Shown here piece after piece: positions 35,258-52,100 of a DNA stretch of 64,000 bases. The notes below the pieces were generated by a model. That model worked only from the letters and a program-made list of their open reading frames with translations, was not told the DNA's origin and did no database searches. The translations under genes were made by a program, and so were the position numbers. The first letter of the stretch is position 1. The number at the start of each line of letters is the position of its first letter. Source of the DNA: a virus (Duplodnaviria; Heunggongvirae; Uroviricota; Caudoviricetes); the IMG/VR virus record IMGVR_UViG_3300037461_001229, positions 1 through 64,000 of that record; one strand, 5' to 3'.

Positions 35258-35315
35258 ACATTTGGAAATATCAAAAACAATTCTTATCTTTGTTTTTGAA
35301 TTGAATTATTAATAT

Positions 35316-35540
35316 TTTGCCCCCGCCACGGGAGATTTTGCCAACGAGTGTGGCCTGGATAAGTCGATATCAACGCTTCTGGCGGGGGTTTGAAAGTTCT
35401 TCGAAATGATGATATTGTCTCTAAAACCCCCAAGAGGGCGACCTGTCGTGGGCCGATAAGTAATGTAGGAGACCCCCGGGAGGGTATTGCCAGGTTCAGT
35501 TTCGGTAACGGGGCTGTTTTTCGGATACCCGCCCATCACC
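35316..35540 (+). ncRNA. GC-rich structured RNA-like region of unknown identity
   Basis: GC content far above flanks; competing helices cccccgcca(35320-28)/tggcggggg(35380-88) and gggggttt(35384-91)/aaaccccc(35424-31); spurious antisense ORF 35309..35539 is typical of an RNA gene. Confidence 0.25.
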
Positions 35541-35612
35541 GTGGCAGAGTGAAACGGATAATCATCAAAGACTCATAATCTTTGGATAGTGGGTTCGACT
35601 CCCATTGCCGCA
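35541..35612 (+). tRNA. tRNA-like element with CAT anticodon (Met/Ile2-like); imperfect, possibly pseudo-tRNA or att remnant
   Basis: manual cloverleaf: acceptor gtggcag/ttgccgc (2 GU), D stem gtga/tcat, perfect anticodon stem aaaga/tcttt with loop CTCATAA, T loop TTCGACT but only 4-bp T stem. Confidence 0.3.
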
Positions 35613-36247
35613 ACAAGGGCTAGCGTCCGTCAGAGTCGCATAGCGTCTCGAGGGCCGGAAGGTACAATGGTCGTGCGCCCTTTTTAAAATGTCACGTTTT
35701 CGCCGGCAAAAACGTGACAAATTGATAATAATTAATAATTAAATATAAAATGGCATTTATCCCATTATTGGTATTGTACTACATGGATAGTGAGGAGGAG
35801 ATAGAAAGAAAATCCAATCTTGGCCAGGAGCCCAGAATGGAAGAGGGGGAGATACGTATAAACACCATGCATATATGTTCTTATAATGAGACCGATAAGA
35901 GTCATGTGATATGCCGCATGACTAATGGAGATATACTTGAGCTCCCAATGCCGGTAGAGACATTCGAGGCGTTATTAGCCCAGTCTGAGGTGATATTGAA
36001 TTTTTCGGAGTTAAGCGATAATTAGTTCTTTATAGGTTGCCCGTAGGCGGGCAGACAGAACAATAACGGTTTGGATTACCGATTCATACTGTTTCTCACG
36101 GGTTTTATTGTTTGACGTGAGGGAATTCGTGAGCCTGCAAGAGAGAGTAAATGCAGTATCCCTACAATACGCGAGACCTTGTAAAGAATAGAAAAGGGGC
36201 AATTAAGCCCCTTTTCTTATTTACAAATTGTAAATTGCATCTATGAA

Positions 36248-43092: not shown

Positions 43093-44232
43093 ATGAGTTT
43101 AGTTTTTCTTCAAGTAGATAGCTGGCACAGCGTCCGTCCCGGGAAATACGTCAGGGACAGGGCTAATGGCTCGTATGTTGCGGTAGGCGACTACTACCTC
43201 CTGAACACAAACAGGATGGTGGATATCGTCTCGCTGGACATGGCGCATGTGCAGTTCAAATATAACCAGGCGCCGGATGACGCCAGATGCTCTCCCGATA
43301 CCATAACTGCTAATATTACGTTAGCTAGTTTGATAACGGCGCATGATACCGCACCTCCGTCTAAGTTTATGACACTACCTATCTTCCCCACCTGCGATAT
43401 TACCAGGATAGGGTTGGATACGCCGGTCTTTACTCAGATAGAGGGTGATGATATAGCTATGATCTATGCCACCCCAAAGGATTTCCTTCATGGGGTATGC
43501 CATATGGTCTATTACAGGAATTCATTCGAGAGGGTAACGTGCATCATTAATCTCGGACTGATGGATGTTTATTATCTCGTTGGATGGCCGTTAGAGGACT
43601 ATGACGGCAATGTCTATCGTACAGTAGCTATTGGTTCACAGGAGTGGATTTGTAGTGATCTTAAGGTTACTCATTATAGTAACGGTGTTGCAATACCCTA
43701 CATTACTCTTGGCGTGGACTGGATGGCGGATATAAGTGGGTGTTATTGTTTCTACAATAACGATCCCACTAATAAGGATGCTCTTGGGGCACTATACAAT
43801 TGGTATGCCGTTAATAATGCTAATGGGCTTGCTTACTTCAAGAGAGCAGGTGTGGCGGAGGCTGGATGGAGGATTCCTACCGTGGCTGACTGGACGACAC
43901 TAAGCACTACTGCTGGTGGAAATACTATTTCCGGGGGTAGGTTAAAAGAGAAGGGATTGGCTTATTGGGAGTCTCCCAATCTTGGAGCTACCGATCTCTA
44001 TGGATTTAGTTCTGTGGGTGCCGGCAATAGATATGTGGATTCAGATGACGGGGAGGGATGGGCTAGTATTAAGATATGGAATGATATTTGGTCTGCTGAT
44101 GCAGTTCCAGCCCCAGATGATGATGAGGCTTATTCTATATATCTTGGTTATCTTTCAGCAGCGTTTTTCCCATGGAATCACGAAAAATTTGGTGGTATGT
44201 CTGTACGTTGCGTAAGGGATATAGTTATTTAA
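43093..44232 (+). CDS. FISUMP (Fibrobacter succinogenes major paralogous) domain protein, receptor-binding/adhesin candidate
   Basis: GNVYRTVAIGSQEWICSDLKV...GALYNWYAV...AGWRIPTVADWTTL matches TIGR02145-type FISUMP blocks (G..Y.TV.IG.Q.WM.ENL ... G.LYNW.A ... GW.LP...EW..L). Confidence 0.6.
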   Translation: MSLVFLQVDSWHSVRPGKYVRDRANGSYVAVGDYYLLNTNRMVDIVSLDMAHVQFKYNQAPDDARCSPDTITANITLASLITAHDTAPPSKFMTLPIFPTCDITRIGLDTPVFTQIEGDDIAMIYATPKDFLHGVCHMVYYRNSFERVTCIINLGLMDVYYLVGWPLEDYDGNVYRTVAIGSQEWICSDLKVTHYSNGVAIPYITLGVDWMADISGCYCFYNNDPTNKDALGALYNWYAVNNANGLAYFKRAGVAEAGWRIPTVADWTTLSTTAGGNTISGGRLKEKGLAYWESPNLGATDLYGFSSVGAGNRYVDSDDGEGWASIKIWNDIWSADAVPAPDDDEAYSIYLGYLSAAFFPWNHEKFGGMSVRCVRDIVI

Positions 44233-44262
44233 CATCTTGTTTGATAGTTATCATACAACCGA

Positions 44263-44290
44263 CCCGCTAGAATTCTGGCGGGTTTCTTTA
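44263..44290 (+). terminator. Rho-independent terminator
   Basis: cccgc-tagaattctg-gcggg followed by TTTCTTTATTT. Confidence 0.5.
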
Positions 44291-44335
44291 TTTCCATAAT
44301 GCACTAAATATGTATCTTTGCAGAAACAAGAAGAC

Positions 44336-46894
44336 ATGGCTCAGAAGAAGAAAGAGACCAAATTATCATTTGAGAAAGATTTACAGGTAGAAGAGGCGAG
44401 CAAGCTTGGCATACGCCCGGAAGAGATCATACGCAACTTTGAGGACGTTGGCCGGCTGCCGGATGATTTTAACCCCTATGGAGGCGGCTATACTATAGCC
44501 AGGTCTAAGTTCTTGGGCGATGAGCCTCCCCATGGCCAGTACTGTGGGGGAGACTTTAAGCTGTGGGAAGTTATTAACGACGGAGACCCGTCACTAACCC
44601 CGGTTTACTTTAGCATGCCCGAGCCGCCGACAGATAGGACATTGATCGATGGCTATGGGCTAGACCCTGATGAGCAGTACTTCCGCCGGATCGAACTACC
44701 GAGGAAATTTCGGTTGATCGAAACCAAGGCCCTACAAGACCTGGCAGAGATCGAGAAGAAGAACCGGCAAGAGACCATACAGGGTTATAAGTTCTATCTT
44801 AAGTTCTGGGAGATAGTAGAACAGGAGAGAGATAACCTGGAGGAGGAGCTTATATGGCTTAAAAGGGTATGGTGGTGGAGAACTTATGGTTATTGGTACT
44901 ATAATGACGGGGAGCCGGTATTCCTACCTCCCGACTATTACGACTTCCTTAATTTCTACTTTATAGAGGAAGCGGTCAGGTACCCGGAGTACCGTGATGA
45001 CGTCAGGCGTAAGTACTGTTACTCACGTTATCTAGAAAGCTGTACTGAGACATTCAAAGATTTCGATGCTAACGGTATGGCCAAGAAGAATGCCGATGGT
45101 AAGTACGAGATGGTTGACCTTGGCCGACGGTTATTCTTCGGGGATGTGGAGCCCAAGACTCGTAGGACGGGGGCCACACACGAGGCCGTCCATAAGATAT
45201 TAAAGGGAGCCATGACCCATCTCTCTTATTTCAGTACCATCATCTCTTTTGAGGGTAATAACGCTGAAGTCCACTATAAAAAGAAGCTCTTGCCGGCTTT
45301 CGATGCTTATCCTATGGTTCTGAAGCCTATATGGGAGGGGAATCGCAGGCCCAATATACTAAGGCTTGATGCGCCGCCCAATGTCTACCACACAAGAGGT
45401 CTTAAAAGTGCCATAGCTTACTCGGACTCAGGGGGGCTGTTCGCTAATGAGGGGGATAGGCTTAATGGGGTGTTAAATGATGAGCAAGGCAAAAGTCTCG
45501 GATCAACAGCAGACATCTTTGAGAGGTGGCACATCAACAAATTCACCATGTCTACGGGTATGGGTATCAACATCCTTAAGGGAGTATATGTCAAGAACCC
45601 AAGTACGGTGGAGGATATGGAATCAACAAGTACGCCGTACCATAAGCTCTGTGAGTTATCTAATTTCTATAGACGGGTACCGGTTAAGGGTCAGACCATG
45701 GAGGGCTTTGCCAGGATATTTTTGCCGGCCTATCTCAGGCTTGAGGGGTATATTGACCGATTTGGTAAGTCAGTGGTGGAGACGCCTACAGAGAGACAGA
45801 TAAGGCTGTCGCCGGATGCGATCTTTGCAGTAAGTAAGAAGGGAGCCAGGGAGACGATGCAGGCAGAGAGAGACGCACTACTTGCACTCAACACGCCTGA
45901 GTCTCTTGAGCTCTACCGTAGTATCCGCAGAAAATCCCCGTTTACCTGGGATGAATGCTGGTTGGGGTCTGCAGGTAATGCCGGCTATAATCTTGAGATT
46001 ATAGATAAGCGCATGGGGGAACTTAACCAGCTTAAGTCCTTTGGTAAGATGCCTTATCGTGTGGGTTATTTTTATCGGGACACCTATCCTGATGGGACAG
46101 TGCTCTGGAAAGACGATCCTAATGACATACGGTTCAGGATATCGATGATTCTCCCGCCGGAACTATCTAATCAGAGGGAGATGATCGAGGTATGGGATGG
46201 TCTTAACCAGAAGTTTATCCCGGGATGGCGCCCAAGGAATGGGCAGCGGTTCACTCTCGGGTGCGACCCCTTCCGAAACCTTAAGGCTATAGAGGTTAAA
46301 TCAATGAGCAAGGCGGGTATGAGGTCGAGCACGTCACGGCAGTCCGATGGTGGTATCGCTGTACTATGGGAGTATGACCCCGCTATAGATGGCAACAAAC
46401 CTAAAAAAGACTGGGATAGCTTTAAATTCGTTTGTACATACAGGCATAGGCCATTAACACAAGAAGCGTATTTCGATGATGTACTGATGTGTGCCCAGTA
46501 TTTCGGAGCTATGATCTATCCTGAGCAGAACGTGGAAGCATTCCTCGTGCACCTCTATAAGAGAGGTTATGGAGGCTATGGTCTGCATGACTTTGATATT
46601 ATGACCGGTAGGCCCAAGGCGCTTCCCGGGAGGTATAACGCTACTGAGACTAATCAGGATATGGTTCGTGAGATCAAGGATTATATTGAGTTTAGGGGGC
46701 ATGTCGAAGATCACGATGACCTGCTAGCAGAAATTAAGTCGTTCAGGGGCGTTGAGGACTTTACCAGGCTTGACCTTAAGACTGCTGCCGGTATGGCACT
46801 ACTTGGCTCTAAGTCCCGCCATAGGGAGATATTAGGAGATAATAAAAGTATTGGGCTAGATTTGGACGATATCTTCCCGGTGAGATATTATTGA
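44336..46894 (+). CDS. terL: putative terminase large subunit
   Basis: position immediately upstream of portal-scaffold-capsid block; deviant P-loop-like PKTRRTGAT; nuclease-like LGCDPF / EYDPA Asp motifs in C-terminal half; start moved to ATG 44336 downstream of -7 box 44313-44320. Confidence 0.5.
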   Translation: MAQKKKETKLSFEKDLQVEEASKLGIRPEEIIRNFEDVGRLPDDFNPYGGGYTIARSKFLGDEPPHGQYCGGDFKLWEVINDGDPSLTPVYFSMPEPPTDRTLIDGYGLDPDEQYFRRIELPRKFRLIETKALQDLAEIEKKNRQETIQGYKFYLKFWEIVEQERDNLEEELIWLKRVWWWRTYGYWYYNDGEPVFLPPDYYDFLNFYFIEEAVRYPEYRDDVRRKYCYSRYLESCTETFKDFDANGMAKKNADGKYEMVDLGRRLFFGDVEPKTRRTGATHEAVHKILKGAMTHLSYFSTIISFEGNNAEVHYKKKLLPAFDAYPMVLKPIWEGNRRPNILRLDAPPNVYHTRGLKSAIAYSDSGGLFANEGDRLNGVLNDEQGKSLGSTADIFERWHINKFTMSTGMGINILKGVYVKNPSTVEDMESTSTPYHKLCELSNFYRRVPVKGQTMEGFARIFLPAYLRLEGYIDRFGKSVVETPTERQIRLSPDAIFAVSKKGARETMQAERDALLALNTPESLELYRSIRRKSPFTWDECWLGSAGNAGYNLEIIDKRMGELNQLKSFGKMPYRVGYFYRDTYPDGTVLWKDDPNDIRFRISMILPPELSNQREMIEVWDGLNQKFIPGWRPRNGQRFTLGCDPFRNLKAIEVKSMSKAGMRSSTSRQSDGGIAVLWEYDPAIDGNKPKKDWDSFKFVCTYRHRPLTQEAYFDDVLMCAQYFGAMIYPEQNVEAFLVHLYKRGYGGYGLHDFDIMTGRPKALPGRYNATETNQDMVREIKDYIEFRGHVEDHDDLLAEIKSFRGVEDFTRLDLKTAAGMALLGSKSRHREILGDNKSIGLDLDDIFPVRYY

Positions 46895-46923
46895 AAATAT
46901 TTTGTAATATTAAATATTATATT

Positions 46924-46931
46924 TATCTTTG
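46924..46931 (+). promoter_or_regulatory. Bacteroidota sigma-A -7 element TAnnTTTG (tRNA sub-operon 1)
   Basis: tatctttg. Confidence 0.5.
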
Positions 46932-46979
46932 CGTTATGATTAGAATCCAACATATAGAGCAGCCTATAGACTTACTTAC

Positions 46980-47036
46980 GGGGTGAGACAACTCTCTATT
47001 TGAGTATATACCCACCCCATAAGGTGGGTTTTTTAT
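46980..47036 (+). promoter_or_regulatory. attenuator-like leader: antiterminator ggggtg/cacccc versus terminator cccacc-ccataa-ggtggg + T7
   Basis: mutually exclusive helices share segment 47013-47018; terminator T-run abuts first tRNA. Confidence 0.4.
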
Positions 47037-47038
47037 TT

Positions 47039-47113
47039 CTGGGTGTTCCGCAGATGGCTATACGGGCCTCCCCTGGAAGGAGGTGTTCGGGGGTTCGAAT
47101 CCCTCTACCCAGA
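47039..47113 (+). tRNA. tRNA-Pro (TGG)
   Basis: manual fold: acceptor ctgggtg/tacccag, anticodon stem cctcc/ggagg loop CCTGGAA, T arm ggggg-TTCGAAT-ccctc. Confidence 0.55.
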
Positions 47114-47119
47114 CAATAT

Positions 47120-47191
47120 TGGCATATAGTTCAATGGTAAGAACGCACGGCTTATACCCCTGTAATTCTGGTTCGAGTCCAGGTATGCCAA
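47120..47191 (+). tRNA. tRNA with TAT anticodon (Ile2-like)
   Basis: acceptor tggcata/tatgcca perfect; D stem gttc/gaac; loop CTTATAC; T arm tctgg-TTCGAGT-ccagg. Confidence 0.5.
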
Positions 47192-47193
47192 CT

Positions 47194-47266
47194 GTGTACG
47201 ATGCTCGTATGGAAGAGTACCGGATTGTGACCCCGGTTAAAGGGAGTTCGAATCTCCTCGTACACC
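47194..47266 (+). tRNA. tRNA-His (GTG)
   Basis: acceptor gtgtacg/cgtacac; loop TTGTGAC; T arm gggag-TTCGAAT-ctcct. Confidence 0.6.
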
Positions 47267-47269
47267 TAT

Positions 47270-47343
47270 GCTCGGTTGGTGAAGTTGGCTAACACGCAGG
47301 ACTTTCAATCCTGTATTCAGGAGTTCGAGACTCCTACCGAGCA
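47270..47343 (+). tRNA. tRNA-Glu (TTC)
   Basis: acceptor gctcggt/accgagc; anticodon stem cagga/tcctg loop CTTTCAA; T arm aggag-TTCGAGA-ctcct. Confidence 0.65.
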
Positions 47344-47346
47344 CAT

Positions 47347-47417
47347 TGCCTAGTCGTATAAAGGCAGTACATCTGGCTTTGAACCAGGCGGAATTGGATC
47401 GTTACCAGTCTAGGCAT
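47347..47417 (+). tRNA. tRNA-Gln (TTG)
   Basis: acceptor tgcctag/ctaggca; anticodon stem tctgg/ccagg loop CTTTGAA; T arm attgg-ATCGTTA-ccagt (A54). Confidence 0.5.
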
Positions 47418-47448
47418 CAAATAAATTTGGAAATTAAAAATAAAGTAT

Positions 47449-47456
47449 TATCTTTG
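47449..47456 (+). promoter_or_regulatory. Bacteroidota -7 element (tRNA sub-operon 2)
   Basis: tatctttg. Confidence 0.5.
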
Positions 47457-47533
47457 CAGTGTAAAATAAAGTTAATGCAGAGCATAAAGAGAAATATGGT
47501 GAATATTGATCGTACAGGCGCAACCTTACGGAA

Positions 47534-47603
47534 GGGCATTCCCATATGATCTTTTAAGAGATTAGAAGTGGAATGCCCTCAGAGATGGGGGCATTCTTAT
47601 TTT
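47534..47603 (+). promoter_or_regulatory. attenuator-like leader: antiterminator gggcattcc/ggaatgccc versus terminator gaatgccc/gggcattc + TTATTTT
   Basis: 9-bp and 8-bp alternative helices sharing 47571-47578. Confidence 0.45.
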
Positions 47604-47673
47604 GGCGCATAGTCTAAAGGTACGACGCTTCTCTGATACGGAAGTAGTGATAGTTCGAGTCTGTCTGTGCCAA
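47603..47673 (+). tRNA. tRNA-Ile (GAT)
   Basis: acceptor tggcgca/tgtgcca; loop CTGATAC; T arm gatag-TTCGAGT-ctgtc. Confidence 0.55.
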
Positions 47674-47676
47674 CAT

Positions 47677-47755
47677 AGCGGGTTAGGCTGAAGGTGGTTA
47701 CAGCGCGGTCTCATAAGCCGTAACGTCGGGAGTTCGATTCTCTCACCCGCTACCA
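47677..47755 (+). tRNA. tRNA-Met (CAT), CCA encoded
   Basis: acceptor agcgggt/acccgct; loop CTCATAA; T arm gggag-TTCGATT-ctctc; 3' ACCA present. Confidence 0.55.
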
Positions 47756-47756
47756 T

Positions 47757-47831
47757 GGGGGATTAGCTCAGAGGCAGAGCGGCATCCTGTTAAGATGAGG
47801 GTCGGGTTTTCAATATACTCATCCCCCGCCA
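47757..47831 (+). tRNA. tRNA-Asn (GTT), CCA encoded
   Basis: acceptor gggggat/atccccc; D stem gctc/gagc; loop CTGTTAA; T loop TTCAATA. Confidence 0.55.
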
Positions 47832-47834
47832 AAG

Positions 47835-47906
47835 GTCCTTATGGTGTAATGGAGAGCACACGGGTCTTCTAAGCCCTTAGTCAGGGTTCGACTCCTTGTA
47901 GGGACG
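47835..47906 (+). tRNA. tRNA-Arg (TCT)
   Basis: acceptor gtcctta/tagggac; loop CTTCTAA; T arm caggg-TTCGACT-ccttg. Confidence 0.55.
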
Positions 47907-47911
47907 CACAT

Positions 47912-47984
47912 AGCTCGTAGGTCAAACGGTTAAGATGTCACCCTGTCACGGTGTACGGAACGGGTTCAACTCCCGCACGAGCTG
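47912..47984 (+). tRNA. tRNA-Asp (GTC)
   Basis: acceptor agctcgt/acgagct; loop CTGTCAC; T loop TTCAACT. Confidence 0.6.
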
Positions 47985-47989
47985 CAAAT

Positions 47990-48061
47990 GGGACGTTAGT
48001 ATAATGGCTATTATTTCTGATTTGCACTCAGAAGATGAGGTTTCGATTACCTCACGCTCCA
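47990..48061 (+). tRNA. tRNA-Ala (TGC)
   Basis: G3:U70 Ala identity pair present; anticodon stem tctga/tcaga loop TTTGCAC; T arm gaggt-TTCGATT-acctc. Confidence 0.65.
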
Positions 48062-48066
48062 CTAAT

Positions 48067-48138
48067 GCGTCGTAGGTGTTGATGGTTGCATGTCAGTCTT
48101 CCAAACTGAGGGAGTGAATTCGAATTTCACACGATGCT
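48067..48138 (+). tRNA. tRNA-Gly (TCC)
   Basis: acceptor gcgtcgt/acgatgc; stem tcagt/actga loop CTTCCAA; T arm gtgaa-TTCGAAT-ttcac. Confidence 0.65.
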
Positions 48139-48142
48139 CTAA

Positions 48143-48215
48143 GTCCTCTTAGCAAAGCGGCGTATAGCTCCACCCTTTTAAGGTGGCGAGGATGGTTCGA
48201 CTCCATCAGGGGACA
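48143..48215 (+). tRNA. tRNA-Lys (TTT)
   Basis: acceptor gtcctct/aggggac; stem ccacc/ggtgg loop CTTTTAA; T arm gatgg-TTCGACT-ccatc. Confidence 0.65.
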
Positions 48216-48216
48216 C

Positions 48217-48291
48217 ACGCTCGTAGCATAATGGAAAGTGCACTTGGCAACGAACCAAGGTTATGTGAGGGTTCGATTCCTTCCGGGCGTA
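48217..48291 (+). tRNA. tRNA-Arg (ACG) with A33
   Basis: acceptor acgctcg/cgggcgt; stem cttgg/ccaag loop CAACGAA; 7-nt variable loop; T arm gaggg-TTCGATT-ccttc. Confidence 0.5.
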
Positions 48292-48296
48292 CATAT

Positions 48297-48368
48297 GCTC
48301 CACAAGCATTGTTGGCGATGCTCTCGCCTTGTAAGCCTGAGAGCGGGGTTCGATTCCTCGGTGGAGCT
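48297..48368 (+). tRNA. tRNA-Thr (TGT)-like with irregular anticodon arm
   Basis: perfect acceptor gctccac/gtggagc, D stem gcat/atgc, T arm cgggg-TTCGATT-cctcg; anticodon region ctctc-gccTTGTAAgcct-gagag folds either as 5-bp stem with 13-nt loop or as a mismatched canonical stem. Confidence 0.4.
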
Positions 48369-48371
48369 CAT

Positions 48372-48444
48372 AGCCTGATAGTGTAGTGGTTAAGCACGGC
48401 ACCCTTACAAGATGTTAGCTACAGTTCGACTCTGTATCGGGCTA
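48372..48444 (+). tRNA. tRNA-Val (TAC)
   Basis: acceptor agcctga/tcgggct; loop CTTACAA; T arm tacag-TTCGACT-ctgta. Confidence 0.6.
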
Positions 48445-48487
48445 CAAAAATAAATCCATAAAAGTTTGCATATTAAAAAATAATTAT

Positions 48488-48495
48488 TATCTTTG
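48488..48495 (+). promoter_or_regulatory. Bacteroidota -7 element (tRNA sub-operon 3)
   Basis: tatctttg. Confidence 0.5.
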
Positions 48496-48548
48496 TGGTA
48501 TGAAAAAACTATGGTGTTCATATAGTTCGTTTTTACTCTTGCTCTCGG

Positions 48549-48620
48549 GGCGAGGTAGTTGAGCTATATCCACTGCAGATATACAAGGAGCCTCGCCTAT
48601 AAAGCGGGGCTTTTTGTTTT
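48549..48620 (+). promoter_or_regulatory. attenuator-like leader: antiterminator ggcgagg/cctcgcc versus terminator gcctcgc-ctataaa-gcggggc + T-run
   Basis: alternative helices share 48590-48597; T-run ends one nt before tRNA. Confidence 0.45.
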
Positions 48621-48696
48621 GCTCTGGTAGTCCAATTGGCAGAATGACAACAGACTTAAACCCTGTCCAGTGTCGGTTCGAATCCGACTCAGAGCA
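48621..48696 (+). tRNA. tRNA with TAA anticodon (Leu-type anticodon, class I architecture)
   Basis: acceptor gctctgg/tcagagc; loop CTTAAAC; T arm gtcgg-TTCGAAT-ccgac; only 76 nt, no long variable arm. Confidence 0.45.
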
Positions 48697-48699
48697 CAC

Positions 48700-48772
48700 G
48701 CTACGGTAGCGAATTGGTATAGCACGGTGACTTAGAATCATCGGATTGTGGATTCGAATTCCACCCGTAGCA
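48700..48772 (+). tRNA. tRNA with TAG anticodon (Leu-type anticodon, class I architecture)
   Basis: acceptor gctacgg/ccgtagc perfect; stem ggtga/tcatc loop CTTAGAA; T arm gtgga-TTCGAAT-tccac; 73 nt. Confidence 0.5.
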
Positions 48773-48776
48773 CAAT

Positions 48777-48860
48777 GGAGGGTTCGCCAGCGGCCTGGCA
48801 ACTGGTCTTGAAAACCAGGATGCATCTGAAAGGACGGGGGATCGACACCTCAACCCTCCG
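48777..48860 (+). tRNA. tRNA-Ser (TGA), class II
   Basis: acceptor ggagggt/accctcc; stem ctggt/accag loop CTTGAAA; long variable arm; T loop ATCGACA. Confidence 0.6.
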
Positions 48861-48866
48861 CAATAT

Positions 48867-48947
48867 GGAAGTACTCCCAAGATGGTGAATGGGGCATGAC
48901 TGTAAATCATGTGCTTCGGCTGAGAGGTTCGAATCCTTATACTTCCA
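48867..48947 (+). tRNA. tRNA-Tyr (GTA), class II
   Basis: acceptor ggaagta/tacttcc; stem catga/tcatg loop CTGTAAA; variable arm gcttcggc; T loop TTCGAAT. Confidence 0.6.
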
Positions 48948-48990
48948 CGGGGGTTTATTAAACTTTTGTTATCTTTGTAAGAAAAAAAAT

Positions 48991-49386
48991 ATGTTTAATA
49001 ATGTAAAGAACACAAAGAAGCAGGGGGATATTGGAATGGGCATGGCAATAGGTTATTTTACTGCCCAGGGATATACGGTATTGATTCCTTTAACCGATAG
49101 TCAGGATTATGATTTGGTTATAGAGAAAAATGGTCTTTTAAAGAAGGTACAGGTAAAGACAACTTCGTATAAGACTCCTAATGGGATATTTAATATCAAT
49201 CTTAGCGTGAAAGGTGGGAATAGGTCTTATAATACCATAAAGAAGTTTAACCCTGATCTTGTTGATTATTTATTTATTTTTACATCTAATGGAGATATGT
49301 ATTTTATCCCATCTCCCCAAAATATTACGAGTCACCTGAATCTCGGTAAAAAATATCAGGACTTTAAAGTATTCATGGATGGTTGA
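48991..49386 (+). CDS. small PD-(D/E)XK-like nuclease candidate embedded in the tRNA array
   Basis: ORF 48889..49386 trimmed to ATG after -7 box 48970-48977; DYDLVIEKNGLLKKVQVKT gives D...E.K-like motif; 3' end overlaps tRNA-Ser by 10 nt. Confidence 0.35.
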   Translation: MFNNVKNTKKQGDIGMGMAIGYFTAQGYTVLIPLTDSQDYDLVIEKNGLLKKVQVKTTSYKTPNGIFNINLSVKGGNRSYNTIKKFNPDLVDYLFIFTSNGDMYFIPSPQNITSHLNLGKKYQDFKVFMDG

Positions 49387-49461
49387 CCGAGAGGTAAGGT
49401 ACAAGTTTGCTAAACTTAGGTTGGGATAAAACCCAGGGGGGATCGTTACCCTCACCCTCCG
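49377..49461 (+). tRNA. tRNA-Ser (GCT), class II
   Basis: acceptor ggatggt/accctcc (one mismatch); loop TTGCTAA; variable-arm stem tggg/ccca; T loop ATCGTTA. Confidence 0.5.
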
Positions 49462-49464
49462 CAT

Positions 49465-49535
49465 GGGCAATTAGTGTAATGGTAGCACGACAGCCTCCAA
49501 AACTGTTTGTAACTGTTCGAGTCGGTTATCGCCCG
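49465..49535 (+). tRNA. tRNA-Trp (CCA)
   Basis: acceptor gggcaat/atcgccc (one mismatch); D stem gtgt/gcac; loop CTCCAAA; T arm aactg-TTCGAGT-cggtt. Confidence 0.55.
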
Positions 49536-49539
49536 CAAT

Positions 49540-49612
49540 GGAGATTAAGCAAATCTGGTGATCGCAGATGCCTGAAGAGCATAAGAGCGTGGATCGTAAC
49601 CACAAATCTCCA
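49540..49612 (+). tRNA. tRNA-Phe (GAA)
   Basis: acceptor ggagatt/aatctcc perfect; loop CTGAAGA; T loop ATCGTAA. Confidence 0.5.
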
Positions 49613-49616
49613 CTAC

Positions 49617-49683
49617 GGCCATATAAGAGCACAGAATTATGTTTGCAAAACATAAGAGGAGGGTGCGTCTCCCTCTATGGCCT
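49617..49683 (+). tRNA. tRNA-Cys (GCA)-like, short D arm and non-canonical T loop (possible pseudo-tRNA)
   Basis: acceptor ggccata/tatggcc perfect; anticodon stem tatgt/acata loop TTGCAAA; T-position helix gaggg-tgcgtct-ccctc lacks TTC; 67 nt. Confidence 0.3.
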
Positions 49684-49707
49684 CAAAGCAGTTATAATAA
49701 AATGAAT

Positions 49708-49715
49708 TATCTTTG
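49708..49715 (+). promoter_or_regulatory. Bacteroidota -7 element upstream of portal gene
   Basis: tatctttg 19 nt before ATG 49734. Confidence 0.5.
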
Positions 49716-49733
49716 CATTATAATTTATAGTGC

Positions 49734-52100
49734 ATGATACCTATCATTGACGATTCTTACAAGAATAAGGAGTGGGCGTTTCCCCCACGTGATCAGAATC
49801 CAGCTAATAAAGGAGCGGAATATTGCAGGCAGAATAACCAGGCTATATACAGCCTTTTCTGTCGTAATAAAATGGCGTGGGGAGCGGGTGATCTTCGAAC
49901 ATTCGGGACACTAAGGGATTATTCTAATGGCCGCCAAAGCACAGATCAGTATAAATCGTTTCTATTAAATGATATAAACGACAACGGCACTTCTGTATCT
50001 TTCGACTCATTCGATCAACTACCGCTTTCCCGTGTTGCAAAACGCCAGGGCTGGTACAATATGATTTGGGATAACATTTCCCCGGCTCCGATGATTATGA
50101 ATGCCTTACATGGGCAATTCGATAAGCTTGACTTTGATCTTAACGTAAGTGTTGTTGACCCTGATTCCCGGGCCCTGGAAGAAGAGCAAGCATTCCTTAA
50201 ACTTATAGAGGCACAGAACGCCGAATGGCAGAATAAGATCAAGATGGAGATGGGTATTCCTATTGATGAAGATGTTATGATGCCAAGGTCTAAGGAAGAG
50301 TTAGATATGCTCAAGGCCAAGGATGGGTTTAAGCTTAACGTAGCCCGGGCAATGCAGAAGATACTCAGGCATTCATTTGAGGTCAGCCGGTGGGATAATG
50401 TAGTAAGAAAGAAGCTTATTGATGATCTTATATGTCTTGGCTATTGCGTGGTCAGGGATTTCTATAATGCTGAGACCGGCATGTGGGAATGCGAATATGT
50501 TGATCCAGCCACCTATGTCACACAGGTTTCTAATGAGACGGATTATTCTGACGCCGAGTATGGTGGTCAGTTTATCCTTATGACGATATCAAACCTGAGA
50601 AATAAATTACCTGATGTACCGGAAGAAGAGTTAAAGGCCATGGCCGGTACTATGCTTGGTAATTACGGCAACCCCAAGGAAGACTGGCCCAATCATTACT
50701 CACTACTTGACCCAAGTACCGGTATCTGCAATTATGATGGGTTTAAGGTGCCGGTATTCAAGGCGTGGTGGGTGGATACTGATACTAAGAAAAGGTTATG
50801 GGTTAAGTCCCGCTATGGCAGGGAAAAGATACTTGACATCCCTTATGATTCCGATGAGAAGACTATGGATAAGCTCGCCGGTGGGAGACAGGAGGTACGT
50901 CCGGTATTCATAAGGAATATCCGTGAGTGCTCGTGGGTTATAGGGAAGGATTGGGTGTTCGACTACGGTGTTATAAAGATGGCGTCAAGGGATGGTTACA
51001 AGAAGCCACAGGCTCCCTATCACGTTGAGCAGTTACTTCAGCCGTCCATAATTGAGAGGATACGTTCTATCTTAGACCAGATAGAGATCACCTTCCTCAG
51101 ATACCAGAACTCGCTCGCACAGATGTTTGAGAATGGTATTGCAGTTAACGTCTCGATGTTGGGGAATGTCAACCTCGGTGGTGGGATGCTTAAGCCCGCC
51201 CAGGTTATTAAACTGTACAAACAGACAGGGGTCTTACCGTATCAATATGGTGCCAGCACGGGTCATTATACAGGTGGAGCAGCACTGCCGATCACTCCTA
51301 TCCCCGGGGGTATGCAAACCAGAGTGGAGGAGACCATACGTATGATGGATATGTGGATGCAGCAGATAGAGAGGCATACCGGTATTAACCCGGTGACCCT
51401 TGGGGCTACTCCTGATCCTAATGCGCCCGTTGGTACTACCGAAGCAGCCATGCAGGCAACCGCCAATGTTATTAAACCAATAGCAGATGCATGCTTTGAG
51501 GTTAAGGAAAGCGTGGGTACTTCTATGATGAGAAGAATTCAGATAGGGATACGGAATAGTGAACAGGTACGCAAGAGCTATGGCGGAATAGTCAGCCCTA
51601 TGGATATAGATGCATTAAGGCTTATGGAGTCGGATGGTGTGCAATATGGGCTATCACTTAAGGCCAAGCCGGATACCAGGGCTAAGATGCGGTTCGAGAA
51701 GTGGATCGACATTGCCCTGCAGAATACTCGTGAGAAGAGGCCGGGTATTGATCTTAATGATGCTATATACTTCATGTCAAGACTTGAGGCTGGTGATGAC
51801 CTTAATGACCTTGAAAAACAGCTTGAGTACGCGATAGAGAAGAACAAGCAGGAAGCTGCCGCCCAGAGTGAGAGAATGATTCAGGCACAGGGAGAACAGA
51901 ACACACAGCTTGAACAGGCTAAGATGCAATCGGAGATGGCAAGGATCAAGGCAGAAGCAGAAGCCAGTATGGCCGAAGAGGCTCTGCGCGGTCAGATAAA
52001 GGCACAGCAGTCAAGTAAAGAGATAGTAGCACAACTATGGTCTGATTTAAGGCAGACTGCCGATGCTGAAGACGGTATCTTAACACAGACAGGAAGATGA
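49734..52100 (+). CDS. putative portal protein
   Basis: 788 aa, position between terminase and scaffold/capsid, C-terminal Ala/Glu/Gln-rich coiled-coil tail. Confidence 0.5.
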   Translation: MIPIIDDSYKNKEWAFPPRDQNPANKGAEYCRQNNQAIYSLFCRNKMAWGAGDLRTFGTLRDYSNGRQSTDQYKSFLLNDINDNGTSVSFDSFDQLPLSRVAKRQGWYNMIWDNISPAPMIMNALHGQFDKLDFDLNVSVVDPDSRALEEEQAFLKLIEAQNAEWQNKIKMEMGIPIDEDVMMPRSKEELDMLKAKDGFKLNVARAMQKILRHSFEVSRWDNVVRKKLIDDLICLGYCVVRDFYNAETGMWECEYVDPATYVTQVSNETDYSDAEYGGQFILMTISNLRNKLPDVPEEELKAMAGTMLGNYGNPKEDWPNHYSLLDPSTGICNYDGFKVPVFKAWWVDTDTKKRLWVKSRYGREKILDIPYDSDEKTMDKLAGGRQEVRPVFIRNIRECSWVIGKDWVFDYGVIKMASRDGYKKPQAPYHVEQLLQPSIIERIRSILDQIEITFLRYQNSLAQMFENGIAVNVSMLGNVNLGGGMLKPAQVIKLYKQTGVLPYQYGASTGHYTGGAALPITPIPGGMQTRVEETIRMMDMWMQQIERHTGINPVTLGATPDPNAPVGTTEAAMQATANVIKPIADACFEVKESVGTSMMRRIQIGIRNSEQVRKSYGGIVSPMDIDALRLMESDGVQYGLSLKAKPDTRAKMRFEKWIDIALQNTREKRPGIDLNDAIYFMSRLEAGDDLNDLEKQLEYAIEKNKQEAAAQSERMIQAQGEQNTQLEQAKMQSEMARIKAEAEASMAEEALRGQIKAQQSSKEIVAQLWSDLRQTADAEDGILTQTGR

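Follow-up and report, generated by a model that had tools for sequence, protein, structure and literature searches.

Candidate leader-peptide attenuators in front of the tRNA operons of a tailed phage

Why phages carry tRNA genes, and how these genes are controlled, is an open question, and it is raised by a tRNA array in the 64,000-nucleotide stretch of Caudoviricetes DNA analyzed here (IMG/VR record IMGVR_UViG_3300037461_001229, positions 1 to 64,000; hereafter the window). The array is flanked by the large terminase gene (TerL; 44318-46894) and the portal gene (49734-52100), and ARAGORN and Rfam placed 20 tRNA genes at 47039-48948 and 3 more at 49377-49612. Three spacers of 115-175 nucleotides (nt) each divide the array into blocks whose first tRNAs begin at 47039, 47603 and 48621; every spacer has a TATCTTTG box at its start and a G+C-rich hairpin with a T-run at its end, directly 5' of the first tRNA of the block. 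The original prediction, made from the letters of this region, read the layout as attenuation-type control by mutually exclusive helices, a proposal that is supported by the near-equal energies of these helices, their conservation and their rarity in shuffled sequences. It had overlooked the input signal, which is a conserved open reading frame (ORF) in each leader, with codons that match the downstream tRNAs and last codons that form the 5' arm of the antiterminator. Using sequence comparison and predicted folding, we show the parts of these units, their conservation, the correspondence between codons and tRNAs and the thermodynamic switching. We consider it likely that they are three ribosome-mediated (leader-peptide) transcription attenuators, one per tRNA operon, that sense decoding capacity.

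Leader reading frames and their codons

Each leader (100-140 nt) contains one short ORF that begins at the first ATG after the promoter and encodes 16, 24 and 20 amino acids in units 1, 2 and 3, respectively. The units and the tRNAs that follow them are arranged as listed here.

46901-46931, plus strand: promoter of unit 1, with a -33 TTTG, 19 nt and TATCTTTG at 46924-46931; predicted transcription start 46936
46936-46986, plus strand: leader ORF 1, MIRIQHIEQPIDLLTG and stop codon; predicted leaderless; sensor codons CAT ATA GAG CAG CCT (HIEQP) at 46951-46965
47039-47418, plus strand: tRNA block 1, with Pro-TGG, Ile-TAT, His-GTG, Glu-TTC and Gln-TTG
47426-47456, plus strand: promoter of unit 2, with TTTG, 19 nt and TATCTTTG at 47449-47456
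47475-47549, plus strand: leader ORF 2, MQSIKRNMVNIDRTGATLRKGIPI and stop codon; sensor codons KRNMVNIDRTGA at 47487-47522
47603-48445, plus strand: tRNA block 2, with Ile-GAT, Met-CAT, Asn, Arg-TCT, Asp, Ala, Gly-TCC, Lys, Arg-ACG, Thr and Val
48465-48495, plus strand: promoter of unit 3, with TTTG, 19 nt and TATCTTTG at 48488-48495; predicted transcription start 48500
48500-48562, plus strand: leader ORF 3, MKKLWCSYSSFLLLLSGRGS and stop codon; predicted leaderless; sensor codons LWCSYSSFL at 48509-48535
48621-48948, plus strand: tRNA block 3, with Leu-TAA, Leu-TAG, Ser-TGA and Tyr-GTA
48970-49386, plus strand: insertion specific to this genome, with a -7 box at 48970 and a PD-(D/E)XK endonuclease gene at 48991-49386
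49377-49686, plus strand: fourth tRNA group, with Ser-GCT 49377-49461, Trp-CCA 49465-49536, Phe-GAA 49540-49612 and a Cys-GCA-like gene at ~49616-49686

Three tRNA sub-operons had been proposed, and three blocks were indeed found, although a fourth group lies behind the inserted endonuclease gene. This insertion separates block 3 from the last four tRNAs, which are contiguous with it in relatives such as loci L035 and L002. The fourth group supplies the tRNAs for the codons W, C, F and AGT in leader 3.

The central part of each ORF, its core, reads as a checklist of the tRNAs encoded downstream. HIEQP in leader 1 consists of five consecutive codons, one each for Pro, Ile-TAT, His, Glu and Gln of block 1 (5/5). 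The 12 codons of KRNMVNIDRTGA in leader 2 cover 11/11 tRNAs of block 2, with AGA for Arg-TCT and CGT for Arg-ACG, and the 9 codons LWCSYSSFL of leader 3 cover 8/8 tRNAs, namely Leu, Leu, Ser and Tyr of block 3 and Ser, Trp, Phe and Cys behind the inserted gene. Isoacceptors are sampled separately: both Arg, both Leu (by CTA and TTA) and both Ser (by TCA and AGT), and likewise ATA versus ATT. All core codons belong to their own block, the sole overlap being the ATG of core 2, which block 1 Ile-TAT could also read by U34 A/G wobble, and the three checklists together comprise tRNAs for all 20 amino acids. Based on the phage's own codon usage, the chance of a full-coverage window anywhere in an ORF of the given length is 1.1e-4, 6e-6 and 1.8e-6 for the three leaders, or jointly ~1e-15, and an equivalent checklist occurred in 0 of ~10,000 windows from the phage's own long genes. 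The match is confined to the ATG frame, with the best of the other five frames reaching 3/5, 7/11 and 5/8. As in a known attenuator, the regulatory codons correspond to the regulated product, and a promoter and a short ORF lie wholly within the leader, 5' of the first regulated gene.

The boxes at 46924, 47449 and 48488, pointed out in the original prediction, are found exactly there as TATCTTTG. Throughout the window, TTATCTTTG occurs 14 times against 1.0 expected, and the bipartite motif TTTG-N19-TAnnTTTG has 16 matches against 0.84 expected, including all three leader promoters; additional TATCTTTG boxes lie at 48970 and 49708. The motif corresponds to the Bacteroidota sigma-A promoter, with TTTG at -33, 19 nt and TAnnTTTG at -7 (PMC7366714), and the host of the phage is most likely a member of the Bacteroidota. 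The sigma-A box of Flavobacterium psychrophilum occupies -12 to -5; in this species 5.5% of the mRNAs are leaderless, and its amino-acid operons are suspected to be preceded by leader-peptide attenuators (PMC9723704). The ATGs of ORFs 1 and 3 follow the box by 4 nt (4-7 nt in relatives), and because of this spacing and the position of the Flavobacterium box they are predicted to lie at +1 to +4, on leaderless or nearly leaderless transcripts. ORF 2 is spaced 17-19 nt from its box, similar to the ordinary genes of this phage (13-18 nt), and has a short A-rich 5' untranslated region (UTR).

Competing helices and the modelled position of the ribosome

A terminator scan of 44-52 kb returned 15 terminator-like sites against 5.7 expected, among which the leader hairpins are entries 1, 2 and 4, with stems at 47010-47029, 47570-47597 and 48583-48617, each followed by a T-run. 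A predicted intrinsic terminator lies between each ORF and the first regulated gene. It is very unlikely that these hairpins are instead elements of tRNA-precursor processing or stability, such as 5' leader structures for RNase P or RNase E, with a fortuitous likeness to terminators. They do end a few nt before mature tRNA 5' ends, but they stand only before the first tRNA of each block and not before the other ~20, they carry a canonical U-run, and relatives conserve the promoter, the ORF and the competing helices that go with them.

In the attenuator reading, the terminator (helix 3:4) competes with an antiterminator (2:3), and the sensor codons pair with a downstream segment (1:2). All six helices whose stem pairs were quoted in the original prediction exist and are fully paired, and they take their place in the three switches as follows.

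46951-46959 with 46994-47002, plus strand: unit 1 sensor codons CATATAGAG paired with CTCTAT(TTG)
46980-47035, plus strand: unit 1 switch, with antiterminator GGGGTG 46980-46985 / CACCCC 47013-47018, extended by CUUA/UAAG
47011-47016 with 47023-47028, plus strand: unit 1 terminator CCCACC / GGTGGG, T-run from 47029
47488-47602, plus strand: unit 2 switch, with helix 1:2 formed by 47488-47507 / 47535-47554 (sensor codons / ORF end)
47534-47542 with 47570-47578, plus strand: unit 2 antiterminator 2:3, GGGCATTCC / GGAATGCCC
47571-47578 with 47589-47596, plus strand: unit 2 terminator 3:4, GAATGCCC / GGGCATTC, then T-run
48520-48620, plus strand: unit 3 switch, with helix 1:2 formed by 48520-48532 / 48557-48569
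48536-48543 with 48549-48555, plus strand: unit 3 inner hairpin, which holds the antiterminator 5' arm
48549-48555 with 48591-48597, plus strand: unit 3 antiterminator GGCGAGG / CCTCGCC
48590-48596 with 48604-48610, plus strand: unit 3 terminator GCCTCGC / GCGGGGC, then T-run

Folded as local segments, the terminator and antiterminator conformers are nearly isoenergetic, at -20.7/-19.7, -27.0/-25.3 and -20.6/-21.3 kcal/mol in leaders 1, 2 and 3, and before the 3' arm of the terminator has been made the antiterminator fold amounts to -14.2, -23.7 and -20.5 kcal/mol. The antiterminators are therefore not negligible beside the terminators; had they been so, the proposed switch would have been refuted by the criterion set in the original prediction. 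In each leader the antiterminator shares the 5' arm of the terminator, and its own 5' arm lies in the last 2-5 codons of the ORF (ACG GGG TGA; GGC ATT CC; GG CGA GG), where a ribosome at the stop codon would cover it; the arm extends into the stop codon in leader 1 only, and in that leader the arrangement is partly conserved.

To model the effect of translation, each leader was refolded with the nucleotides under a ribosome kept unpaired, the A site being placed at each position in turn. For leaders 2 and 3 of the window we relied on hand-defined hairpins, as the automated terminator finder picked the wrong hairpin or took in the U-run. With the ribosome absent, the probability of the terminator, P(terminator), was 0.99 in leaders 2 and 3. 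It dropped to 0.06-0.5 with the A site on MVNIDR in leader 2 and to 0.07-0.65 over CSYSSFLL in leader 3, where it was below 0.5 at 5/8 codons, and further downstream, up to the stop codon, it returned to 0.99-1.0. The result was the same with the mask extended by 9, 12 or 15 nt on the 3' side, and a dip in P(terminator) was also seen in most relatives. In dinucleotide shuffles of the upstream part, the switching pattern arose in 3, 0 and 8 of 200 (0-4%). The succession of terminator, antiterminator and terminator for a ribosome that is absent, on the sensor codons or at the stop codon is clear in leaders 2 and 3 and partial in leader 1. According to the model, helix 1:2 would sequester the antiterminator arm unless a ribosome is on the sensor codons. 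Since termination is predicted without translation or upon its completion, and read-through upon stalling, the modelled leaders share their three-state logic with the trp attenuator.

We infer that the ORFs are translated, that translation is coupled to transcription, that transcription terminates at the hairpins and that a biological trigger exists, and we propose the following course of events. Host sigma-A RNA polymerase would initiate at each promoter and a ribosome would translate the short leader ORF, whose core would serve as a checklist with about one codon per downstream tRNA species. If decoding is fast, the ribosome would reach the stop codon and cover the last codons, which are the antiterminator 5' arm; with this arm covered, the G+C-rich hairpin and U-run would form and transcription would stop before the first tRNA. 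If any sensed tRNA is scarce, the ribosome would stall on the sensor codons and melt their helix with the downstream segment, and the freed antiterminator arm would pair with the terminator 5' arm, allowing polymerase to enter the tRNA block. The tRNA products would then relieve the stall, so that decoding capacity would be under closed-loop feedback. The trigger could be that host tRNAs are lost in the course of infection or cleaved by defence systems: ribosomes stall at the codons of a single tRNA that has been lost or cleaved (PMC13096801), and immune effectors that cleave tRNAs are known (PMC13462974). With somewhat less confidence, we also favour the view that the array is a closed-loop tRNA homeostat, in which a block would be on only when the cell cannot decode one of its codons, owing for example to host tRNA decay or cleavage by an anticodon nuclease, and off again once its own tRNAs have restored decoding; the three ORFs would serve as test strips read codon by codon.

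Conservation among related phages

Relatives were collected by TerL searches of IMG/VR and JGI metagenomes, which gave 71 loci. About a dozen of these have the same array, usually upstream of TerL rather than downstream, and their TerL proteins are 48-77% identical. A pattern scan of IMG/VR for the leader cores added one new relative, L075, and otherwise returned known loci or chance coding matches. All array-bearing relatives have the three-block order and three leaders, so the three-leader layout that the original prediction suggested looking for in related phages is kept at this TerL distance. A query with the upstream gene (43093-44232) found no relatives in IMG/VR, and one with the portal gene found two loci and no further array. 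Among GenBank phages, no relatives were detected at the DNA level except for single tRNAs, and the best TerL matches are 23-25% identical (Cellulophaga phi46:3-like phages and Flavobacterium phages), on which grounds a crAss-like identity was rejected. A scan for leader cores in a 185,579-species genome collection gave chance matches inside genes only and no clue to a host or prophage. One of the TerL homologues (L006 789-3353) has one in-frame stop codon, for which recoding of the stop, an intron or an error in sequencing could be responsible.

The ORFs are conserved as reading frames, and their start positions are kept. Their lengths of 17, 25 and 21 codons including the stop are kept in 6/7, 8/8 and 7/8 distinct sequences, the position of the stop is fixed while the stop codon itself varies among TGA, TAA and TAG, and variable sites at codon positions 1, 2 and 3 number 20, 22 and 38 (p=0.026). 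Only synonymous changes occur in the QHIEQP core (CAA/CAG, CAT/CAC, CCT/CCC/CCA/CCG), and replacements in the other cores are mostly within the set of the block (V to M, N to K, T to R, exchanges among S, L and F, WC to CW). A codon for every tRNA called in the block is held by the leader in 24/26 leader/block combinations.

The division of the tRNAs among the blocks itself follows the genetic code nearly by codon family, with all T-first codons, CTN and AGY in block 3, most A- and G-first codons and CGN in block 2, and CCN, CAN, GAR and ATA in block 1. Because of this division, point mutations in a core tend to remain within their own block.

Two relatives (L018 3222-3369 and L038 87-234) have a CAT-anticodon tRNA between Pro and His, in the slot of the window's Ile-TAT, preceded by a 75-nt stretch in which no tool calls a tRNA. 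This tRNA-CAT may be of the Ile2/lysidine type and read the same ATA sensor codon. An extra ATG in leader 1 (MIM...) that seemed to covary with the block 1 tRNA-CAT in these two loci was considered and rejected, as L016 has the same leader yet carries Ile-TAT. In a further lineage (L001 300-760, L011 4170-4680 and L013), all that is left of the collapsed array is leader 1, a remnant that is a Pro/Trp hybrid, a small hairpin, and Phe and Cys. Leader 1 keeps its ORF, its terminator and the predicted switch there; the array may have decayed recently, or the leader may now control unmatched tRNAs.

The helices are conserved to differing degrees. In ribosome-free RNAalifold consensus structures, the sensor codons of leader 2 pair with the end of the ORF and those of leaders 1 and 3 with a segment just past the stop; these 1:2 helices enclose or include the antiterminator arm, and the terminator follows. 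The 1:2 consensus contains compensatory pairs in leaders 2 and 3 (A4 columns 44:77, UA5/CG4; A3 columns 44:104, 63:85 and 66:81) and is weaker for leader 1. Compensatory substitutions, which had been suggested as a check on the helices, were thus found in the 1:2 helices and also in the leader 1 terminator stem (CCCACC/GGTGGG, CCCTCC/GGAGGG, CCCGCC/GGCGGG), but the antiterminators show one-sided changes only: in leaders 2 and 3 their arms are near-invariant or have G-U changes only, with no double-sided covariation. The alternative helices would also have been called into question by relatives that lack them. Antiterminator pairing holds in 100% of cells for leader 2 (8 distinct sequences) and leader 3 (10), but for leader 1, with the antiterminator taken as it stands in the window, only 60% of cells are paired across relatives.

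These patterns bear on two other explanations. One is a switch that acts without translation, in which the ORFs are untranslated and the helices respond to a phage or host RNA-binding protein, to uncharged tRNA in a T-box-like manner, to nucleoside triphosphate levels or to the timing of infection. We regard this as improbable. The alternative helices are present and conserved whether or not the ORFs are translated, and ORFs 1 and 3 lack a 5' UTR on which ribosomes could load; left unexplained, however, are the list of one codon per tRNA in the ATG frame alone, the fixed ORF length, the stop position kept despite changing stop codons, the excess of third-position changes and the location of the antiterminator arm, which is always at the end of the ORF. 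Neither the T-box nor any other riboswitch family matched the leaders at E<=1.

The other explanation, to which we likewise give a low probability, is that the leaders are small independent genes for micropeptides or short RNAs with ordinary terminators, or else insulators whose leakiness fixes tRNA at a low level, such that the tRNAs would come from constitutive read-through and the alternative helices would have no regulatory role. The replacements within the cores, which stay mostly in the set of the block while the peptide sequence is not conserved, do not fit small genes, nor do the rarity of the switching pattern in shuffles and the terminator that directly abuts the first tRNA in all relatives, and the codon-to-tRNA match would go unexplained. 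A promoter, a short ORF and a terminator are nonetheless the anatomy of a small gene too, the leader 3 peptide is hydrophobic, and the L001 lineage has retained leader 1 without most of its tRNAs.

Several points weigh against ribosome-mediated attenuation. First, all the support for it is computational, and it is assumed that the leader ORFs are translated, including from mRNAs that would be leaderless or have a 1-3 nt leader in the host. Second, the checklists are imperfect: full coverage requires four-codon reading by U34 tRNAs (Pro CCT, Gly GGC), as under strict wobble the coverage is 4/5, 10/11 and 8/8; one codon per tRNA is a far weaker sensor than the codon runs of his and leu leaders; and the Cys-GCA-like gene at 49616-49686 is called neither by ARAGORN, even with 60% thresholds, nor by Rfam. 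Third, the relatives include leader 2 of L035, which lacks a Val codon though Val-TAC is present, and the L001/L011/L013 lineage, which lost most of the array and kept a leader 1 that samples 1/4 tRNAs; moreover, tRNA content is nearly invariant among relatives, so covariation between leader and block has no true test. Fourth, leader 1 behaves poorly, with its incompletely conserved antiterminator, an antiterminator favoured in the window even without a ribosome, and a terminator that never opens in the model for relatives L016, L018 and L044. Lastly, the equilibrium model showed no switch for Q/P of leader 1, K/R/N and T/G/A of leader 2 or L/W of leader 3, and when the U-run was allowed to pair with an upstream A-rich stretch, the leader 3 terminator won at all ribosome positions, although at the moment of decision the U-run sits inside the polymerase.

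Known leaders, other elements and implications

All testable defining features of a ribosome-mediated attenuator were found in the leaders. They resemble the enterobacterial trp, his, leu, pheA, thr and ilvGMEDA/ilvBN leaders in having a promoter, a short ORF with regulatory codons and the 1:2, 2:3 and 3:4 helices, and in the predicted outcome, whereby a stall at hungry codons leads to read-through and a ribosome at the stop codon to termination. Leader 2 has exactly the four-segment topology of these attenuators, and a multivalent response is known from the thr and ilv leaders, each of which senses more than one amino acid. There is no sequence similarity to the enterobacterial leaders, and unlike them, the units described here precede tRNAs rather than enzymes, with a product that would act directly on the sensor; carry a mixed, isoacceptor-resolved list of about one codon per species (5, 11 and 8) in place of single-codon runs; have ORFs of which two of three are predicted leaderless; and belong to a phage of a Bacteroidota-type host. 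In the pheST leader of E. coli, a component of the translation apparatus is subject to ribosome-mediated attenuation by decoding of cognate codons. That attenuator differs in controlling a synthetase, in sensing a single amino acid with a Phe run and in belonging to a cellular gene.

T-box leaders (RF00230) are similar in that competing terminator and antiterminator structures report tRNA status to translation-related genes; they differ in binding one uncharged tRNA through a specifier codon and a bulge, without translation, whereas each unit here would sense 5-11 tRNAs. RF00230 had no match at E<=1 in 44000-52000 and none at the gathering score in the whole window, and no Rfam leader or riboswitch family reached its gathering threshold in 44000-52000. 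Below threshold were a Thr_leader-like match at 48516-48620 (23.1 bits, threshold 55) and a Trp_leader-like match at 44184-44291 (25.2 bits, threshold 41), the latter located at the end of another gene and its terminator. The ermC, cat and mef/msr leaders share a ribosome that stalls in a short ORF and remodels the downstream RNA, but their stall depends on an antibiotic and the nascent peptide and their output is mostly translational; in the leaders described here codon content is conserved and peptide is not.

Arrays of many tRNAs interspersed with homing-endonuclease genes are also found in crAss001 and the Lak megaphage, and T4 and T5 carry such arrays as well. No unit of promoter, checklist ORF and terminator was found 5' of the tRNA blocks in crAss001 or in a 40-kb Lak segment. 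Before its first tRNA block, crAss001 (L074) 1650-1690 has TTATCTTTG, 4 nt and then a 4-codon ORF, ATG ATT AGA AGA TAA, whose first nine bases are the same as in leader 1 and which no terminator follows; this may be chance or a vestige. In a full-text literature search, with most subscription journals outside its reach, we found no description of leader-peptide attenuation of tRNA genes, and a 2024 opinion piece on phage tRNAs mentions neither attenuation nor leaders, terminators or promoters.

Other elements of the window deserve description. The inserted PD-(D/E)XK endonuclease gene matches Pfam PF11645 (E=4e-22), has its own -7 box and is missing at this site in relatives; a similar protein in Lak megaphage LR756501 (L181 18640-18890) ends immediately 5' of a tRNA block, which suggests a mobile endonuclease travelling with phage tRNA arrays. 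The Cys-GCA-like gene aligns with tRNA-Cys genes that are called in relatives and has intact acceptor, anticodon and T stems, with TGCGTCT instead of TTCGATT in the T-loop, and may be a degenerate or atypical tRNA. Further upstream, the region 35261-35613 opens with a full bipartite promoter at 35261-35292. Behind it come ~250 nt that are rich in G+C and strongly self-complementary (e.g. GCCCCCGCCA...TGGCGGGGGT) and then a lone tRNA-CAT at 35541-35612. The region contains a short ORF, MMILSLKPPRGRPVVGR, has only a 33-nt stretch in common with relative L015 and has no Rfam match. A fourth unit before this tRNA-Met (35541) was considered and rejected, as there is no convincing sensor ORF and almost no conservation. 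Lastly, the minus strand at 31006-31072 matches the Rfam model of a self-cleaving ribozyme, twister-sister (RF02681), with 44.7 bits where the gathering score is 34 (E=1e-6).

As leader-peptide attenuators, these units depart from those known to us in controlling tRNA genes, in sensing 5-11 species with isoacceptor resolution and in being phage-owned. If the reading is true, the regulated product, tRNA, would be the very molecule that is sensed, which is the most direct feedback conceivable for translation capacity. Leader-peptide attenuation would reach beyond the amino-acid metabolism of Proteobacteria and Firmicutes to the tRNA genes of a phage with Bacteroidota-type signals, and its sensor would be a list with a single codon for each tRNA species in place of repeats of one codon. 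At about 100-140 nt, the leaders offer a compact natural part for reporters of the availability of specific tRNAs. The attenuator reading would also connect phage tRNA arrays, in a directly testable way, with the turnover of host tRNAs or with host defences that target tRNAs. If the array does act as a homeostat, tRNA genes would for the first time be seen under leader-peptide attenuation, and no regulatory logic would have been described before for the tRNA array of a phage.

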